From: Pseudogymnoascus verrucosus
Lineage: Eukaryota
Length of the DNA: 64,000 nt
Reading direction: 5' to 3' (one strand)
Assembly: GCA_001662655.1 (NCBI GenBank)
Contig: KV460277.1
Shown: positions 1-58,207 of the stretch, one piece after another
How the letters are laid out: every line of letters begins with the position of its first letter
How positions within the stretch are numbered: the first letter of the stretch is position 1
Notes under the pieces: generated by a model
Seen by the model: only the letters and a program-made list of their open reading frames with translations
Told to the model about the DNA's origin: nothing
The model's database searches: none
Position numbers and translations under genes: made by a program

Positions 1-124
1 TAAGCTCTATAAACATTATTACAGAAGTTATTAAGATTTTAATTCCAGTCACGTGATGTGGATTTTGGTGTGTTTTCTAAAATCGCCGCTTACACCATGT
101 CGCCGCTTACACCATGACCTACGT
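1..124. mobile_element. End of a pogo/Fot1-family MITE, cut by the window edge
   Basis: TIR tcgccgcttacaccatg-tcgccgcttacaccatg-acctacgt (83-124) followed by TA. Bases 1-75 resemble the arm at 3000-3075. Confidence 0.75.
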
Positions 125-126
125 TA

Positions 127-865
127 CCTCTTAGGTAAGATTAGGTTCTACAATTCATTTAAAGGCATCCTAACTTACGTGTTAAGTTAGGACGTAGAGT
201 TAAGGCATAGAGGATAAATAGGGTAACAAAAGAGGTGTTAAAGAGGTAGTTTAACATGTATAAAAGCCTTATAACAGAGCTAAAAATCAAAAACTACAAC
301 ACCTATAATATAGACAAGACTAGATTTTTAATTAGAACTATGTAATCTACACGAATTATAGTTGATTCTACACTCTATACACGATTCTAAGCTCATTCTA
401 GCTAATAGGAATAGGTGTCTGCAGTTGAGTGCATCTTATAGACAGAACAGCTATTAACCCTCTTATTATCTTTAAAGGATAGAATTTTCTATAAAGCTAG
501 ATTCTAAAGGAAGTTATACAAAAATGGCACTTCTCTATAAACATAAAAGGGTAGATAAGCAATCTATATAGATTAGAGTAGTTAAGACGCGTTTTTAAGC
601 TCTCTATAAGAGCAAAAGCAACACTTCTAAATAGAAAACTATAATAAAGGCTCTTTATTTATAAGAGCTATAATAGCTATATAAGTAGAAGCTTTATATT
701 ACACTGTATATAGAATTGAATATTGCTCCTTATAATACCTCCTTATACATCTTATATACTACAACCACTTAATATTTCAATTTTTAGGTCTTTAAAGCAA
801 CACCTTACAACTACTCTCTTATACCTAAATAAGGCACAACTACTACGTATATAGAAGTTAGAATA
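127..865 (+). pseudogene. RIP-inactivated Fot1/pogo transposase, central/DDE_1 segment
   Basis: Frame from 127 reads PLR*D*VLQFI*RHPNLRVKLGRR...TYNIDKTRF...*E*VSAVECI, which is the pogo motif series PLGQDW...YNMDETGF...QEWVSAVECI with C>T/G>A changes creating TAA/TAG stops. Confidence 0.85.
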
Positions 866-1350
866 GAGGTTGTTATTGTAGGTGTTGTTGTATGTGTTGT
901 TGTTGAGGCTGAAAAACGCAACACTTATTTAACCGGACTTCATCTGCAACCTCTCGTAGGATTCGATGGCTAGGTGCGTAGCCACTATTTATAAGCTCCT
1001 TTATCCATTTTAATAAGGTACGCTCTTGATTTTTAGATAATAGTTGCTGTTTTTGACGCGCTTCTTGCCTTAAAGGCCGTTGTTGGCTAACGCGCTTACT
1101 GACAGTATTGCGGCTTAACCCTAAGGCCTTAGCAGCCTCATATGACGACTTATACTTCTTATTTTGGATGCCTAGGATAGCTTCAGCTAATAAAGCTTCT
1201 AATTCCTTTGATTTTTGACTTTTTTGACGCACCATAATTGATTTTAGGTGGTTAATAGGGTGTAGTAAATAACTACACTTACTTTGGTGGGGTATAGCTC
1301 TAGGAAAGCGTCCCGTTACGCCATCCGTCCCGTTACGCCACGACTTACGT
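864..1350 (-). mobile_element. 5' end of a Fot1/pogo element: TIR plus N-terminal HTH-psq/CENP-B-type HTH region of the transposase
   Basis: ORF 873-1235 (YKSSYEAAKALGLSRNTVSKRV...LLSKNQERTLLKWIKELINSGYAPSHRILREVADEV). TIR acgtaagtcgtggcgtaacgggacgg-atggcgtaacgggacgc at 1308-1350, followed by TA at 1351-1352. Confidence 0.85.
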
Positions 1351-2438
1351 TACAGTAGAACGCTTACATACTCCTATAGAGCATGATATTTTTAAGAAGG
1401 TATTCTTAAACAGTAGTCCACCTGATTTTCAAACACTTTAAAAAGTGAATTCTGTGCTCTCTACAGCCTTAAATTAAGGTGTTTTGAATACTCCTACAAA
1501 GCGATATATTAATAAGTTAGCAGATGAGTTAGAACGCCTTAGTATACGTAATACCCTTTAAAAAAGAGAGTGTAATAACTTACACTCAATTATTTAGAAG
1601 CGTAGAGTATAGAATAAGGGCAAAAGAGCAGTTTTAAAGGGTTAATTCCACATTTCTATAGAAGAACTCTAGTTGCAAGTTATAGAAGCAGAAGCAGCAA
1701 CAGCTATAGCTTTACAGAGGCCTAGAACAACACCACAACCTATAAACGAGGCTATAATTAAGGAAATAGATGAAGAGAGTGAAGAAGAGCTATATGATAG
1801 CAATTTAGATGAATTGGCTCTATAGTAATTGAATTATTTACGATTTTCTAAGTTAACGTAAGTCGTGGCCATACCGGCTACATGGCCATACTGGCTATTT
1901 TGCTGACCCCACTAAAAGTTGGTTAGATTTACATCACATGACCTACAATTGAATTCCTAATAACTTTTGTAATAAAAATATTAGGACTTAACCCTCTTAT
2001 ATAAAGTGTCTTTATATACCTATACCTTATAATTAAAAACACTAGCATATAAGCTAGCGTTATAAGGAAATTATTAACAGTTTTAGATTTGCTATACTAA
2101 ATTTTTATATAACAAAAGTTAAAATCTTTAATAACTTATGTAAAACAAAGCTAGTGCTATTAGCGTCTTTATATATAGTAGACAATAGTTTAAAGTTTCT
2201 ATATATAAGAGGGATATGCTCTAGCATTTTTATTAAAGGAGTTATAATGTTCTGTTTTTTTTAAAGTGTAAGTATCATTACATACAAACTTGTATGTAAA
2301 GGTACTAATAGCCGGTATGGCCATGTAGCCGGTATGGCCACGACTTACGTTAGTAGTTTGGTGGTTCTGTCCTGGATTTTAGTAGGGTTTTTAGAATCGC
2401 CGCTTACGCTATGTCGCCGCTTACGCCACGACTTACGT
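1351..2438 (+). mobile_element. 3' part of a Fot1/pogo element (RIP'd transposase C-terminus plus right TIR), interrupted by a MITE
   Basis: Degenerate frame VFLNSSPPDFQTL*KVNSVL...TPTKRYINKLADELERL...KGKRAVLKG*FHIS, ending ~1825. TIR ...tcgccgcttacgccacgacttacgt ends at 2438, followed by TA. Confidence 0.75.
1856..2350. mobile_element. MITE, 495 bp, pogo-type TIR, L-R arm form
   Basis: ~40-bp TIRs acgtaagtcgtggccataccggctacatggccatac(t/c)ggcta at both ends. TA at 1854-1855 and 2351-2352. Confidence 0.9.
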
Positions 2439-2652
2439 TAGTTTATAAACTCTAACACCTACTACTTACTACTTACATAAATCTATAAATAAGTATAGCT
2501 AGTTAGCCTACCTATATATTAATAATTATAAAGCTAAATAGGCTAAATCTATAGGTAGAAATTAGGTTTCTTTTAAGATAGTAGTCATTTAAACATTTAC
2601 TAAGTATAGAATAGAGCTAAGAATAGAGCTATAGCTAATATTAGAACTACTA

Positions 2653-3122
2653 ACGTAGGTCGTGGCCAGAGCGGCGCCATGGCCAGAGCGGCGACTGCAT
2701 TAACCACACTAAAATCTAAGTCATGTGACCTAATTTAAAACCTTAATAACTTTTGTAATAGTGGCTATAAAGCTTAATCCTCCTAGCCTATTGCTCTTTA
2801 TATGATAATACATTATAGTTAAATTTACTAGAGTGTAAGCTAGCCTTATTAAAGAGCTATTTATAGTTTAAGTTTTACTATACTAATATTTATATAGTAA
2901 AAGTTTAAACCTTAATATCTCTTGTAAAACGAAGCTAGCACTACTAGCGTTTATATACATATTAGATTATCATATAAAGAGTAATAGTCTAAGAGGATTA
3001 AGCTTTATAGCCACTATTACAAAAGTTATTAAGGTTTTAAATTAGGTCACGTAACTTAGATTTTGGTGTGGTTGATGCAGTCGCCGCTCTGGCCATGGCG
3101 CCGCTCTGGCCACGACCTACGT
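2653..3122. mobile_element. Foldback MITE, 470 bp, L-L arm form
   Basis: TIR acgtaggtcgtggccagagcggcgccatggccagagcggcga extends into ~130-bp inverted arms (2653-2781 and 2992-3122). TA at 2651-2652 and 3123-3124. Confidence 0.9.
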
Positions 3123-3380
3123 TACCTAAAATATTAAAAATATTACATCTACTACCTAACGTTAACTGTTAGAGTGGCAAAGCATGTAATAACAATGTCA
3201 CGTGTAAACAAGTAAACAAACACTCACGTAATAACCTAGAACACGTATGTAAGATTAAATGGTAGGATATTATAAGTGGATGGTCTTAGTGTGTAGTATA
3301 TAACAAAGATAATAGTAGTATGTTATTATATATGTATTATAATTGACTTATAGAACAGAAAGAACAGAGGATATCCTATA

Positions 3381-3875
3381 ACGTAAGTCATGGTGTAAGC
3401 GGCGATATGGCGTAAGCGGCGATAAGTACCCTTACATATACATTTGTATGCAAAGGTACTTCTACATCCGAAACTAAAAACTTAAATAGCTCTATAGACA
3501 AAAATTATTAGGCTTAGCTGTTCGATATTTAGGTTCTATATATAGGCCTTTACTTAACATAAAAACACTAGTGTTACTAGTGTCTTTTTGCAACGCTAAT
3601 TTAAGGGTTAAGTCTTACTTATACAAATATTTGTATAAGCAATCTTCTCCTATTAATAGAACTACAATAACGACACTAGCAATACTAGTCTTTTGATATA
3701 TTATAGAAGTGTATATATAGAATCTAAGTACCAAACAGCTAAGCCTAGCGATTTTTATTAACAGAGTTGTTGAAGTTTTTATTTTTAGAAGGGTAAGTAT
3801 CTTTGCATACAAATTTATATGTAAGGGTACTTATCGCCGCTTACGCCATATCGCCGCTTACACCATGACTTACGT
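3381..3875. mobile_element. Foldback MITE, 495 bp, R-R arm form
   Basis: Identical 42-bp TIRs acgtaagtcatggtgtaagcggcgatatggcgtaagcggcga extend into ~165-bp imperfect inverted arms. TA at 3379-3380 and 3876-3877. The 65-aa ORF 3615-3812 is spurious. Confidence 0.9.
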
Positions 3876-3911
3876 TAGATTAAGCGTCCTTTATATAGAC
3901 AATATTTATAT

Positions 3912-3995
3912 CGGTTAATGACAGAATTGCCACCCAAAATATCAAAAAGGACAGAATTGCCACCCAACTGTTTTAAAATGACTAAATTGCCACCC
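3912..3995 (+). repeat. Three 16-bp direct repeats at 30-bp period; probable orphan Mutator-like terminal repeat
   Basis: gacagaattgccaccc at 3920 and 3950, gactaaattgccaccc at 3980. The TIR at 57344 has a similar three-repeat layout. Confidence 0.55.
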
Positions 3996-4021
3996 TATAA
4001 ACTTAACTTAACATATCTATA

Positions 4022-4505
4022 ACGTAAGTCGTGGCCATACCGGCTACATGGCCAGACCGGCTATTTTGCTAACCCTACCAAAACCAAGGTTACTAAACCA
4101 AAATTAAAACCATAATAACTTTTATAATAGTGTATATAAAGCTTAATCCTCTTAAATTATGTTTTTTCATATAATAATCTAATATGTATATAAACACTAG
4201 TAGTACTAGCTTTGTTTTACAGGAGATATTAAGGCTTATATTTTTACTATACAAATATTTATATAGTAAAACTTAAAACTGTTATTAACTTATGTAAAAA
4301 GACACTAGTAATATTACCCTTTTTATATATAGTAGATACGTACTTAAAGTTTCTATATAGAAAAGGGATTTGCTCTAGCATTTTTATTAATAGAGTTATT
4401 ATAGTTCTAATTTTTCGCAAGCATAAGTACTTCTGCATACAAATTTGTATGTGATGGTACTAATAGCCGGTCTGGCCATGTAGCCGGTCTGACCACGACT
4501 TACGT
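4022..4505. mobile_element. MITE, 484 bp, L-R arm form
   Basis: TIRs acgtaagtcgtggcca(t/g)accggctacatggccagaccggcta. TA at 4020-4021 and 4506-4507. Body is homologous to 1856-2350. Confidence 0.9.
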
Positions 4506-5282: not shown

Positions 5283-8200
5283 ATGGAGCCAGGAACGGAA
5301 GACTCGAAAGACGCGTTACCAGCTGCAATCATCGCCCAAGCAGAAGCGGCATGTGTTGGAAATGCAGACGAAATTCGTTCAACACAACAGCGGCAGTCGT
5401 CTATTGCATCTTGGCCTCACCAGGCGACGTTGGGGGGTGCTCACAGCTCACCCGAAGCTTCTAGGTAGGCACCGATATACATATCGAACCTCACAAGCGC
5501 TGACCATTGTCTCTAGCTCGGCCGATAGGACCTCACATCCTGGAAATTTCGATTTATTGGGAGTTGAAGGAACAGAAGATGCTCCACCAAAGTACAGCGA
5601 ATTAGAGATCAGCCAAGATGGCCTTGACACGAAGGCGAGAGTCACTGGTAGTCTTCCTCAGCCCTGGCACTGAAGTGATGATTGGCCGCGATACATGTAC
5701 TGACATGTCAATTCGCAGATGATGGCCGTGTCAATATCACCATAAACCAGAAGACACGGAGATTATCTGAGCTCCTTAGCCCTGCATTGAGGGGCCAGCT
5801 ATCCCTGGTAGCACAGGAGGACGATCAACCATTACCTCCAGGGTATATCCCACCTTCCCTCGGTGGGCAGCCAGGACAGATTCCTCCGCCAAACCTTAAC
5901 GTCGTAATTCTTGTTGTTGGTTCGCGTGGAGATGTGCAACCATTCGTCGCGTTAGGGAAGGTCCTGAAATCTGCCTATGGGCATCGTGTACGATTAGCAA
6001 CTCACCCAGTTTTTCAATCGTTTGTGGAAGAAAATGGCCTAGAATTCTTCAGTATCGGTGGTGACCCGGCCGAGCTAATGGCTTTCATGGTTAAAAATCC
6101 CGGGTTAATGCCGGGGATGGATTCGCTCAAGAGCGGTGATGTTGGAAAACGGCGCAAGGGAATGGAAGAGATAGTTCTTGGTTGTTGGCGGGCCTGTATC
6201 GAAGCAGGGGATGGCCTCGGGCCTGCACCGCGATTGGAAGGGGGTATAAATATGGACACCAACCCTACTGAGAGGCCATTTATTGCGGACGCTATCATTG
6301 CCAACCCTCCAAGCTTTGCACATGTCCATGTTGCGGAGAAGCTGGGTGTGCCCCTCCATATGATGTTTACGTATGTACGAATTATCAAATCTAGTTGGCA
6401 AGTTGCTAACATAGCAATAGCATGCCATGGTCGCCTACTCAGTCCTTTCCCCACCCCCTTGCAAATATTCAGTCTTCCAACGCCGACGTGAACATGACGA
6501 ATTTCATTTCATATGCTTTAGTGGAAATGATGACTTGGCAAGGTTTAGGGGACCTTATAAATCGTTTCCGCGAACGCGTTCTGGGCTTGGAACCAATAAG
6601 TGTCATATGGGGCCCAGGAGTGCTGAGTCGACTGAAAATACCTTGCACATACTGCTGGTGAGAACCCCGTTTAACTGTCATCGTTAACATTTGCTCACAT
6701 TCCTTACAGGTCTCCAGCTCTTATTCCTAAGCCGAAGGACTGGGGCCGACATATCTCCGTGTCTGGATTTTTCTTTCTGAGTCTTGCCTCCAGTTACCAA
6801 CCTGAGCCCGAGCTCGCCGAATTCTTAGCTGCTGGACCACCACCTGTATATATTGGGTTTGGCTCAATAGTTGTGGATGACCCAAACTCTATGACATCTA
6901 TGATATTTGAAGCCGTACAGAAAGCCGGAGTCCGTGCTCTGGTATCGAAAGGCTGGGGAGGACTCGGCAACGACTCTCTTGACCTCCCGGAAGGGGTGTT
7001 TATGCTTGGAAACGTTCCTCATGACTGGCTGTTTAAACATGTGTCATGTGTGGTTCATCACGGTGGTGCTGGAACCTCAGCTGCTGGGATTGCTCTCGGA
7101 AAACCTACCGTGGTTGTTCCCTTTTTCGGCGACCAACCTTGGTGGGGAGCAATGATATATCGAGCTGGAGCTGGGCCAGAGCCAATACCATATAAGGATC
7201 TAACTGCAGATAGGCTTGCTGCTGCCATTGCTGAGGCGCATAAACCGTCGACTTTGGAGAAGGCAGAAGAACTCGGGGCCCGCATCAGCAAAGAAAAGGG
7301 ATCCGAAGAGGGTGGGAAAAGCTTTCACGATCACCTCGATTGGAATTCGCTTCGCTGCTCACTTGCACCGAATAGGGTCGCTGTGTGGCAAGTGAAGAAG
7401 ACACAGGTTCGACTGAGTGCACTGGCAGCTACAGTCCTCGCCAATGAAGGCCTCCTGAATTTTTCGGATCTTAAACTGTAGGTGCTTCCAAACAAATAAA
7501 GGGTGCCTGGCTAACTGCGCAGATATCGGCCTCGTGAATATGACACGGATAATGGACCCTGGGATCCTATCTCCGGTGGCGCTTCCGCACTTTTCGGCAC
7601 AATCGCAAGCCTGTCAATGGGTGTAGCTGATTTTCCAGTTGAGTTAATTAAAGCCTTTAAACCCAAGCCAGCATCAACTACCACGGATAAAACAGCAGCT
7701 CTTGACGAGGACGATGTACCTTCCCCGGCAGGCGGGAGTCCCTCGCCGCCGAAATATTTAGCCTCAAACTCACAATCGCAGTTGAGTTCGTCATCAGGAA
7801 GCCACAGTGGGCCAGTAGAGCGTTCAGCGTCAACAGATCAAAAATCGGAACAAAGTTCTTCTTCTCCCGCTCCAAAAGAAACCAAGAAGCAATTTGACCC
7901 CTCTGCTATTACATTAGAATCTGCTATTGGAGCTTCTAAAGGGATATCCCGAGTAGTTGGTGCAGGTATGAAGTCACCAATGGACTTCACGTTGGGTTTG
8001 GCTCGGGGATTTCACAATGCTCCTAAGCTATACGGCGACGATACTGTGCGTCCCCAAGAAAGAGTTACTGGCTTCCAGAGCGGATTGAGAGCTGCAGGAA
8101 AGGTTTGTTTACTCCTATTATATTCCCTTCCGTACGCGTTGCACTCCACCGCTCCAATTTGGAATAGTCGAGATCCATATTTCCACCATGACCACTGTTA

Positions 8201-9134
8201 TATTCTGGGGAGACATCAAGACAAATATTGGCCAATAGGCTCTGTTATATCTGTCCCGTTGTATTTGCCGGTTTCAATGATAGGATAGCTGACTGTTCCC
8301 AGGGGTTTGGATATGGATTTTATGATGGTATATCCGGGCTTGTTACCCAACCCATGAAGGGGGCCGAAAAGGAAGGGGCGGCTGGCTTCATTAAAGGCAT
8401 AGGGAGAGGTATTGGTGGACTTGTATTGAAGCCCGGTGCTGGTAAGTGATTTTCATTTGCATCCCCTAGTATATCTGCTAACAGTGGCCTAACCAGCAAT
8501 ATGGGGCCTCCCTGGTTACACGATGATGGGATTGCACAAGGAAGTCCGGAAAATGTTCGGAGCAAGTGTTCAGGCCTACATCATATCAGCCAGAACTGCC
8601 CAGGGGTACGAGCAGTGGAGGATCTCGTCCAAAGAGGAACAGCAGTATATTATAAGCCGTTGGCAGGGACTTAAATCCAAACCTGCAGAGTCATCGCGCC
8701 ATGATAGTGGGAAAGGGAAACAAGATCCAAAAGTGCGATCTAGTGGCGATGGGTCGCAGGCTCATAGTGCGAACCTGGATGATGATGAAGAAGCTCTGCG
8801 CCGTGCTATCGAAGAAAGTATTGCACATGCTGCCGGACCTAAAACAGATGGCGTCTCCGAAGCCGATCAAAAGGCCGCTCTTGAAGCAGCAATCCAGAGA
8901 AGTCTCTCCGATTCCAAAGGACCTTCTGCTTCTACACACGCAAACGAAGATACAGAGGAAGAAGAACAACTAAAGCGTGCCATCGAAGAGTCCATGCGCT
9001 ATCACGATCGGGATGTATCGGCAACAAAGACAGATGAAGATATTGTTATGGAGTACATCAAGAAACAGAGCCTCGCTGAGGAGGAACACAGGCAGGCAAT
9101 GCACAAACCCGCGCCATCTGGAGACAAAGAATGA
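5283..9134 (+). CDS. Sterol 3-beta-glucosyltransferase-like GT1 (Glyco_transf_28 N-domain) with C-terminal UIM repeats; multi-exon
   Basis: VGSRGDVQPFVALG, RVRLATH, AIIANPPSFAHVHVAEKLGVP, VYIGFGSIV, VVHHGGAGT, PFFGDQPWWG in successive ORFs joined by GT-AG introns. Start exon is uncertain. Confidence 0.9.
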
Positions 9135-56972: not shown

Positions 56973-57343
56973 ATCCAGAATAAAGCAGGCTAGACTGAGA
57001 CACGCATATGCGCTGCATGGAATGATAGATAGTATGTACGTTTACTAGCGATGGTATACACCATTCTGCAATTAGATGCATTATTGTACTTGTCCACCAC
57101 CTGCCTCTCTCAATGTTGCTGAGCAATAACATGATCTGCGGTACTGTGGTCTGATGAGAGCACCTGGAGTGCTGAAGTTCGCTGTGCCAGGCTGCCAGCG
57201 AATACATATCTCTATCAATCAATCTGTCAAGTCCTCATCCATGCATACGACCTCACCAGATCAAAGGCGAAACGGGGTTCAATACACGGTGGGAGTTCCC
57301 CCGAGTTACTAATCCATTGGTTTAAAAGCTACAATACATATAA

Positions 57344-58207
57344 CAGCTAATATCATAAATGGGCCTCTTTTTAATTCAAATATCATAAGTAGGCCTCTTT
57401 TTAATATACTATCAGGAATGGGCCTCTTTTTTTCTTATCGCTCACTGCCTATATCATATTACGCGAGTAAAAACTCTAACTGCCTCTATTTACATTTTAT
57501 ATTTAAGTATTCCTAGCTATATATTACTATATCCTTACTAGTATAATGTCTACTCTAGTAATAGGTAATGTTTTCCCTTTAATGAAAGAAGCTAAGCTAT
57601 CTATTATAGCTACTCTTAAAGACAACAGGTAATCGTACTAGACTAAGACCTTAAAGCTAATGAGATTTGTCTTAAAATGTAAGACTGTTAAAGACTAAGA
57701 AGAATAGGAGGAAGATATACTATACTATGAATTTAAGGTATAGTAAACATTATAGTAAACATAGGATATACTAACTATCTTTAGATACGTTATATTACCT
57801 TAAAATTATAATTAAAGGGCCCTATTACATTAATTACTAAGTTACGTCATTATGCTTGTCCTCTATCTATCTACTATAACTTTAAGGGAAATAGCTAGGT
57901 TAAATATCTCACTTAACATCATTCTAAGAGTGTAGCTATTAATCGTCTTATTACAGTTGCATAAATCTAAAGCAATGAGCAGGAGATATCTAGAAATATA
58001 ATCAGCTATCTTATAGCATATATTTAAATTAGCAACTTCAATTAGCGCTGGAAAATCAAAGTTAGGTGATGCTTGGTCATATGACTAGTAGAATAATCAG
58101 GCACATGTATGATGAGAAAAAAAAGAGGCCTATTCCTAATATTATATTAAAAAGAGGCCTATTTATGATATTTGAATTAAAAAGAGGCCCATTTATGATA
58201 TTAGCTG
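57344..58207 (+). mobile_element. RIP-degraded, internally deleted Mutator-like element (864 bp)
   Basis: ~90-bp TIRs (cagctaatatcataaatgggcctcttttt...) with three internal repeats. 9-bp TSD tacatataa (57335-57343) / tacatatga (58208-58216). Decayed MuDR-type N-terminus MSTLVIGNVFPLMKEAKLSII...RFVLKC from ~57546. Confidence 0.88.

Follow-up and report, generated by a model that had tools for sequence, protein, structure and literature searches.

One MITE body with many terminal addresses among the pogo transposons of Pseudogymnoascus verrucosus

Four elements at a contig end and the family they belong to

The first 5 kb of the 64,000-nucleotide stretch of Pseudogymnoascus verrucosus DNA analysed here (assembly GCA_001662655.1, contig KV460277.1; hereafter the window, which starts where the contig starts) are AT-rich, with a GC content of 0.30-0.37, and contain four transposable elements of the miniature inverted-repeat kind (MITEs), E1 to E4, next to parts of two full-length transposons of the pogo/Fot1 type and a further, truncated MITE copy (Table 1). 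The coordinates, lengths and TA flanks that an earlier note had assigned to the four elements are right, and so are the two outer arm types that it distinguished (L-R in E1 and E4, L-L in E2, R-R in E3) and the palindromes that it placed at their centres, the last of which lies 7 nt off the midpoint. We argue below that these MITEs probably represent a single body that has repeatedly been fitted with the ends of different lineages of one pogo transposon.

The terminal inverted repeats (TIRs) contain two 17-bp direct repeats, each made up of [AG]TGG and a 13-nt lineage-specific sequence, here called the address, which varies among subfamilies and is nearly always alike in all four repeats of one element. 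A search of 30 Mb of genome for the TIR pattern gave 262 matches, compared with 2 for the reversed pattern used as a control. From the first 80 TIR-bearing loci and the window, which hold part of the genomic copies, we extracted 65 TIR-bounded elements, 50 of them 440-520 bp long, 8 in the range of 278-310 bp and 5 measuring 1.9-2.0 kb (plus 2 others); 17 further loci entered end-level counts only. The half alignment comprises 48 of the 50 (leaving out the distant 444-bp relative at L005 and L033_3505, whose axis was misplaced), which represent 28 non-redundant types. The central palindrome is present in nearly all extracted copies, and an exact search of the genome finds only 9 sites because the loop varies. 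The excess of TIR matches, the uniform element size and the recurrence of the palindrome show that the family is not a product of chance. Copies lie on many contigs, with above-single-copy depth in runs X4 and X5, and the clusters are located at contig ends and in small contigs, where the assembly is fragmented. Contigs from four other runs differ from the window at the cluster mostly by A>G and T>C, a decay of the type caused by repeat-induced point mutation (RIP), and the host fungus is RIP-active.

The elements have the properties expected of MITEs, i.e., a short and uniform size, no coding capacity (no open reading frame of 120 aa lies within 1856-4505), TIRs and copies at independent loci. 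All 50 extracted elements are flanked by TA by construction, as extraction required it; independent evidence for TA duplication comes from the empty sites of E2 (2652 joined to 3128 in a contig of run X4) and E3 (3380 joined to 3882 in runs X4 and X5), which are possibly paralogous copies of the flanking repeat.

All halves are colinear from terminus to centre and the L and R arms are homologous, a relationship that the earlier note had missed, as it had the existence of two forms, X and Y, of the inner ~75 nt that occur independently of the L/R class. The core measures 152-154 nt in all 51 non-redundant halves, and the difference between L and R is concentrated at nt 45-90, where L arms end with a TCACGTGAC-like motif and R arms have a palindrome like the central one (spacing to the centre ~185 bp, read from the sequence). 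Writing the centre as a slash, the 48 copies divide into 21 LX/YR, 11 LX/YL, 5 RX/YR, 6 LY/YR, 2 RX/YL and 3 RY/YR, and X/Y polarity is preserved in 39 of them whatever their L/R class. Reassortment of the arms is real.

A profile of the core matches each element of a 293-bp MITE family once (16-22 bits, shuffled maximum 3.6), its own reverse strand with 18-19 bits, and both halves of the 444-bp element weakly. The 293-bp family (8 complete copies, one address) has a single core unit and is ~190 bp shorter than the two-unit L-R form. These matches identify the body as a weakly self-complementary unit of ~150 bp present twice, head to head, with a one-unit sister family. Individual copies show weak symmetry within the unit (mean z 0.9), with a common axis in 32 of 56 halves that are not independent of each other. 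As to a Foldback-like nature, in which long inverted arms contain internal repeats, the arms are homologous over the entire half and each unit is weakly self-complementary, and no discrete tandem subrepeat was resolved.

Beyond nt 70, comparison of 100 half-bodies with five full-length elements gave one weak 37-nt match, and the MITE is thus no internal-deletion derivative of an autonomous element. The earlier observation that the arms do not visibly resemble the adjacent transposase coding sequence is borne out by this; yet many L arms match the non-coding ends of full-length transposons over 62-68 nt. Nucleosome positioning through a 10-bp periodicity was also considered and is not supported (YR and CA/TG/TA peak at 10.3, p about 0.8); of the seven features tested on this RIP-altered sequence, WW (p = 0.002), R (p = 0.016) and S (p = 0.026) gave the one clear period, at 7.7 nt. 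E1 folds with z = -11.9, its centroid is mostly TIR stem, and the fold gives no further support to any reading. Rfam gave no match at the gathering score, with one sub-threshold match to a bacterial csRNA (40 versus 57 bits). The L ends carry a conserved TCACGTGA-like motif (window 50-55, 1935-1940 and 2722-2727), which is a typical site for basic helix-loop-helix factors and could confer promoter activity on L ends that lie beside full-length elements, the 5' leader of these elements being only ~100 nt long.

Table 1. Coordinates of the elements and their parts (window positions unless a locus is named)
Feature	Position	Strand	Description
MITE E1	1856..2350	+	495 bp, LX/YR, putatively basal type, address CCATACCGGCTAC; at a TA within the 3' end of a full-length element
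E1 TIR	1856..1899, mirrored 2307-2350	+	ACGTA[AG]GTC, then two 17-bp direct repeats; inverted repeat 46 nt, 98%
E1 central palindrome	2089..2115	.	axis 2102, 1-nt loop
MITE E2	2653..3122	+	470 bp, LX/YL, address CCAGAGCGGCGCC; putative left-end copy over right end ~157 nt
E2 central palindrome	2873..2902	.	axis 2887/8
MITE E3	3381..3875	+	495 bp, R-R, putatively longest end-copy tract (~204 nt), address TGTAAGCGGCGAT
E3 central palindrome	3618..3639	.	perfect 22 bp, axis 3628/9
MITE E4	4022..4505	+	484 bp, LY/YR, apparent chimera, right-end address TCAGACCGGCTAC, palindrome axis 4256/7
E4 left end	4022..4089	+	unlike its 5 sisters; matches the CCATACCGGCTAC autonomous lineage (anchored 68 nt, sub-TIR 20/22)
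R-type subterminal palindrome CATACAAATTTGTATG	4436..4451	.	resembles central palindrome; counterparts near 2281-2296, 3434-3449, 3807-3822
RIP-mutated full-length pogo/Fot1 element, 5' part	126..1350	-	address CGTAACGGGACGG; N-terminal open reading frame 873-1235 with variable first HTH and HTH_Tnp_Tc5
Second full-length element, 3' part	1353..2438	+	split by E1; C-terminal part of the transposase at 1355-1828, 3' end (address CGTAAGCGGCGAC) at 2353-2438
Further MITE copy, L-type end	1..124	-	truncated by contig start
293-bp MITE copies	L013:2636-2928, L013:3494-3786, L018:1910-2202, L022:4549-4841, L070:550-842, others
Distant two-unit relative	L005:1038-1481		444 bp, E1-E4-type TIR layout

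Addresses and first helix-turn-helix domains of the full-length partners

By criteria taken from PMC3441728 and PMC2836289, the full-length partners are of the Fot1/pogo type, with DDE_1 (Pfam E 5e-28) and HTH_Tnp_Tc5 (1.5e-7) domains, ACGT ends and 17-bp TIR repeats. One full-length element retains an intact open reading frame of 580 aa (L032:2368-4110) with both domains, and its own address was carried by no MITE among the ends examined; the closest named homologue of the transposase (92% identity) is from P. verrucosus. The first helix-turn-helix (HTH) domain, HTH1, a candidate for the HTH_psq type, is matched by HTH_50 only, below the cut-off (E 1.3e-4), and on some homologues by PF05225, and a PDB sequence search with the N-terminal 160 aa returned nothing relevant.

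MITEs and transposons share their addresses. Over nt 14-41, no more than one non-RIP mismatch separates 101 of 133 MITE ends from an autonomous end. An exact autonomous match exists for 18 of the 35 MITE address classes, compared with a mean of 1.5 and a maximum of 6 in 300 shuffles. The median length of anchored homology to the cognate autonomous ends is 64 nt in L ends and 43 nt in R ends; the L end of E1 matches the autonomous ends at L004:490 and L020:1336 over its first ~62-66 nt. Address distance does not follow the distance between inner bodies (r = 0.08 and 0.09; p = 0.11 and 0.13), and bodies only 0.01-0.03 transversions apart carry addresses that differ at up to 5 of 13 positions.

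A readable N-terminus was found in 30 5' ends (one a duplicate parse) belonging to 17 address classes, and the full-length transposons form at least 17 lineages. Between lineages, divergence is 0.34-0.38 over the first 300 nt and falls abruptly after residue ~65. Over 118 between-address pairs, coding divergence is 0.40 in HTH1 (transversions 0.23) versus 0.09-0.12 in the core (0.015-0.033). At four-fold sites, divergence between lineages is 0.53 versus 0.13. The contrast at four-fold sites indicates that the 5' modules are old, that amino-acid change is not simply faster there, and that the core has probably been homogenised among lineages. Database homologues show the contrast as well: in 8 pairs whose cores are at least 90% identical, mean identity is 61% in HTH1 and 94% in HTH2 (85 of the 120 listed proteins used).

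HTH1 presumably reads the address. Its identity is 0.87 within an address and 0.48 between addresses, and we looked for co-variation in a set that omits one of 29 sequences and excludes the row for aa 301-400 and the late divergence windows, which are inflated by truncated copies. The linker that follows the helix co-varies with address nt 1-5 (r = 0.52, p = 0.003) and the presumed recognition helix, whose position was assigned from its pattern, with nt 6-13 (r = 0.28, p = 0.007), while the two cross terms are non-significant (p = 0.79 and 0.08). By eye, RPD[TS][VI]R[RK]R accompanies GGCTAC or GGCGAC, ERT[IL]QRR accompanies GTCGGTA, and E[TS]LR accompanies GGGT[AG]TA.

Several observations weigh against the reading of one re-addressed body and a diversified transposase. 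The co-variation rests on 17 lineages that are not independent, and the partial correlation between helix and address drops to 0.17 (p = 0.051) once the N-terminal helices are controlled for. HTH1 and core distances give a Mantel r of 0.2 (p = 0.07) with little signal in the core, so that any incongruence between the two is tentative. The comparison of database homologues is biased, since proteins more than 90% identical are merged in the database. Of the 35 MITE address classes, 17 find no exact autonomous match, some being parse artefacts of nested insertions or one-base variants, and several L ends match their cognate over only 43-47 nt. The address also correlates weakly with mid-arm segments (r = 0.15-0.21 overall, 0.31-0.41 within L-R elements), so that some co-descent exists. 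Finally, all distances are blurred by RIP and the assembly is fragmented at the clusters.

Probable replacement of ends and competing explanations

Comparison of the two arms of each element points to copying of ends in cis. In L-R elements arm identity is confined to the TIR (changepoints at columns 41-47), in E1 to its 44 nt with a changepoint at column 45. In L-L and R-R elements it extends from the terminus to column 83, 101, 116, 151, 157, 166, 171, 175 or 206 of 249, often declining in two steps, the second at 164-167, before ordinary X-versus-Y divergence sets in, and the inner 40-80 bp retain their left/right asymmetry. The arms of E2 are identical at 150 of 157 outer and 37 of 64 inner columns (changepoint at column 171), those of E3 at 168 of 204 outer columns, with a further 23 transitions, and at 17 of 31 inner ones; the changepoint at column 206 is that of L010_2261, a sister copy of E3. 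The inner-segment tree unites L-L elements (with R-L) in one clade (ultrafast bootstrap 100) and four of the R-R types in a second (99). Both clades arise from within the L-R elements, which are basal under midpoint rooting; the E3 group is a separate R-R type outside this tree. Taken together, the stepwise arm identity, the linkage of X and Y and the tree identify L-L and R-R copies as L-R elements with an overwritten end, such that L-R appears to be the basal form, with one origin of L-L and two of R-R by copying of one end over the other. Many of the cis-copy tracts, in both the L-L and the R-R clade, end at the internal symmetry axis of the unit (columns 164-171, ~window 2810 in E2).

Other copies bear traces of ends taken from elsewhere. 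The sisters of E4 have the sub-TIR of the CCAGAGCGGCGCC lineage (20.5/22) beneath another address, CCTAAAGGGCTAC MITEs have that of the TGTAAGCGGCGAC lineage (21/22), and in some copies (E4, L031_4298 and L044_739) the two ends differ in address. These fossil sub-TIRs and mixed-address copies look like intermediates in a process in which one end is captured and then copied to the other. Alternatively, both ends would be copied from an excised full-length element before a switch into the MITE body, which would give similar products. The left end of E4 is a candidate for a recent end replacement in trans; it occurs in a single copy and may be an assembly chimera.

Address sharing could also reflect co-descent, in which point mutations would have let MITE sublineages keep pace with their transposase partners while concerted evolution kept the four repeats alike, with no end replaced in trans. 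Sister MITEs are indeed often only 1-3 address changes apart (L036_1415/L043_1437, L021_3613/L025_7893, L023_7932/L037_1598), and the mid-arm correlation within L-R elements points the same way. The ages speak against it: the partner lineages are old, as judged from the four-fold divergence of HTH1, whereas bodies with different addresses are young (0.01-0.04 transversions), and in several pairs, though not all, the body split is much younger than that of the cognate 5' modules. Nor does it account for the fossil sub-TIRs, the 62-68-nt matches to autonomous ends or the mixed-address copies, and we regard it as unlikely.

The earlier note had proposed that whole halves are exchanged at the central palindrome, which would occur through cruciform resolution or site-specific recombination. 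Such an exchange is seen in the E4 lineage. As reported there, the reverse complement of 2880-3004 resembles 4140-4262 (107 of 125 columns identical, 13 others transitions). From column 131 to 235 the left half of E4 matches Y halves of L-L elements, and its right half matches those of L-R elements, so that the junction is narrowed to the ~30 bp of the central palindrome; over the inner columns the left half agrees with the right half of E2 at 56 of 63 and with its own partner half at 42 of 64. Contigs of runs X5 (4068-4290) and X4 (4222-4416) span the junction, and five sister copies occur at other loci. The left half of E4 thus appears to derive from the right half of an L-L element, and the palindrome itself is conserved in nearly all copies. 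As a general mechanism, the proposal did not survive. The E4 lineage is one of 28 types and accounts for 6 of 48 copies; breakpoints, which a test set in advance expected at the axis, are scattered between columns 83 and 206; and the half-trees expected to be incongruent are not, the inner segments on the two sides of the centre being linked (Mantel r = 0.67, p = 0.001, for 25 non-redundant X/Y elements; r = 0.43 between inner X and inner Y within L-R). L-L elements are monophyletic, and neither E2, as its inner columns show, nor any other L-L or R-R copy is a mirror image of one half. No recombinase was seen, and E4 is also explained by a full-length trans tract that halted at the hairpin. 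Routine exchange at the palindrome is therefore improbable.

Nesting offers a further route, by which a MITE inserts at a TA inside another TIR, loses its own TIR through a deletion between 17-bp repeats and has the other end fixed by copying in cis. Ends do lie inside one another (24 of 262 no more than 130 nt inside another end, several of them at 42-67 nt), and TIRs occur in stacks (L042:2355/2397/2424), but these 9% of ends compare with 18.5% of the TA sites available, and neither the junctions at CCCCAYCAAA nor the long arm tracts are explained, so that we give nesting very little credence. By the same figures we rejected preferential insertion into element ends. The stretch L042:2355-2440 contains three TIRs of different addresses, a nested insertion at TA sites inside a TIR, and the full-length element at L033:852-2842 has differing addresses at its two ends (a chimera or a nested pair). 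Six back-to-back pairs share one TA (L003:1550/1553, L010:5130/5133, L032:1986/1989, L034:1436/1439 and 3231/3234, L064:380/383); they make up 12 of 262 ends versus 1.2% of TA sites, and a preference for the target duplication of another element is possible.

That repeat collapse during assembly created the chimeric elements is conceivable for single-copy oddities such as the left 68 nt of E4, given clusters at contig ends and in small contigs, and otherwise barely worth entertaining, because every type recurs at several loci with different flanks and contigs from runs of other organisms run through the centres of E2, E3 and E4 and show few differences.

Around the elements, window positions 3917-4006 hold three 30-bp repeats with the core ACAGAATTGCCACCC, which together with 3125-3380 seem to be part of another repeat that hosts E3 and has above-single-copy depth in other runs. 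An intron-containing gene adjoins the cluster at ~5680-9130 (+), presumably encoding a sterol glucosyltransferase-like protein as judged by eye. A second AT-rich dip at 57001-58000 (GC 0.35) lacks the TIR motif of the E1-E4 family.

A proposed explanation and its relation to known systems

Excision of Tc1/mariner-pogo elements leaves a gap that is repaired via strand invasion, and template switching during repair can copy one end onto the other. On this basis, the explanation that we consider likely is that one pogo transposase has radiated in lock-and-key fashion and is parasitised by a single MITE body, re-addressed via template switching. The ~480-bp body would be an old inverted duplication of the ~150-bp unit, of which the 293-bp relative has one, and it would move by cut and paste with the cognate transposase supplied in trans. 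End-anchored, homology-directed copying, most likely by template switching in excision-gap or broken-end repair, would then reshape it. Short tracts (42-47 nt) would hold the two TIRs identical; longer tracts in cis (80-205 nt) would have turned L-R into L-L once and into R-R twice; and tracts in trans, often 62-68 nt long and ending in a shared CCCCAYCAAA motif, would import an end from a different MITE or from a full-length transposon, one of them having taken an entire half up to the central palindrome in the E4 lineage. Amplification would be limited to products whose two TIRs match and for which a transposase is available, and re-addressing would be favoured by selection. The outcome would be one body that bears about 30 TIR addresses. 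Each address would fit one of at least 17 transposon lineages, in which a common, homogenised catalytic core is combined with an old lineage-specific 5' module (TIR plus first HTH); among full-length elements, only switches downstream of HTH1 would keep lock and key joined.

A more elaborate version, which we offer as possible rather than probable, sees a eukaryotic arms race of specificity switching within one genome. At least 17 exchangeable 5' cassettes (TIR address plus first HTH) on a shared catalytic core would use a two-part code, the linker reading nt 1-5 and the helix nt 6-13, and a single MITE body whose geometry is quantised (one or two units of ~150 bp, a step of ~185-190 bp) would follow the transposase, taking up each new address at one end and copying it to the other.

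Parts of this system have precedents, compared here with the excerpts available of the papers cited. A TIR layout with two 17-bp repeats is known for fungal Fot1/pogo elements (PMC2836289, PMC3441728), as are several subfamilies per genome (PMC3441728, PMC4188875). DAHLIAE1 of Verticillium, Trem of Paracoccidioides and Mariner_SS of Sclerotinia (PMC3441728, PMC2836289, PMC4188875) resemble the partners described here in their length of ~1.9 kb, TA duplication, ACGT ends, 41-62-bp TIRs with two 17-bp direct repeats, open reading frame starting near nt 100, HTH, HTH_Tnp_Tc5 and DDE_1 domains and several subfamilies with different termini in one genome. The DAHLIAE1 subfamilies are 73-74% identical overall, whereas here a core of ~90% identity follows ~300 nt of sharp divergence at the start, and address and HTH1 form at least 17 pairs; the excerpts on the three elements describe no single MITE body common to lineages.

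Among elements with rearranged ends, Galileo of Drosophila mojavensis likewise extends its TIRs by copying internal sequence between its ends and forms X-E-X chimeras, in which one subfamily supplies the ends and another the interior, but it belongs to the P superfamily, has kb-long TIRs and an interior from the autonomous element, and in the portion available no link to a variable DNA-binding domain is reported (PMC3573991). Drosophila mariner MITEs whose 3' part was replaced by the 5' part (PMC4161770) and the Goblin MITE of Aedes (PMC3814204) share with the present family long inverted arms formed by end-anchored replacement and a tight size constraint, and template switching in gap repair was proposed, as in the model for Goblin; as described in those excerpts, both are deletion derivatives of one progenitor, whereas the present body has no homology to coding sequence and seems to serve many lineages. 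The pairs Vader/Tan1 of Aspergillus niger and Stowaway/Osmar of rice are both named in PMC13728883. Vader, like the present MITE, is a non-autonomous element with a Fot1-type partner and essentially only the TIR in common with it. Vader reportedly has a 44-bp TIR, an AT-rich interior, one partner and one TIR. Stowaway MITEs reportedly share only their TIRs with diverse mariner-like transposases, with internal sequence that may tune mobility; in rice, different families with different bodies rely on cross-mobilisation, whereas here one body would have had its TIR changed to match.

In the main texts of the open literature, a search that left Repbase, Dfam and subscription journals outside, we found no account of the present family or of one MITE body with many addresses, and none of a variable HTH1 on a common core or of MITE re-addressing tied to a variable HTH; a prior description of the family is possible. 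The more surprising feature is the apparent tie between end exchange and a radiation of transposase DNA-binding domains. End-copying itself has precedents.

Exchange of halves at the palindrome is of less importance in this respect, as it accounts for one lineage. In most MITEs the tips alone are shared with a transposase, and the origin of such elements and their changes of partner are an open question (PMC4161770, PMC3814204, in the excerpts available). In the present family the putative intermediates are visible as fossil sub-TIRs, mixed-address copies and graded tract lengths. At least 17 natural protein-DNA pairs on a near-constant catalytic scaffold would make the co-evolution of TIR and transposase directly testable, and a panel of these transposases could yield mutually orthogonal transposon tools.

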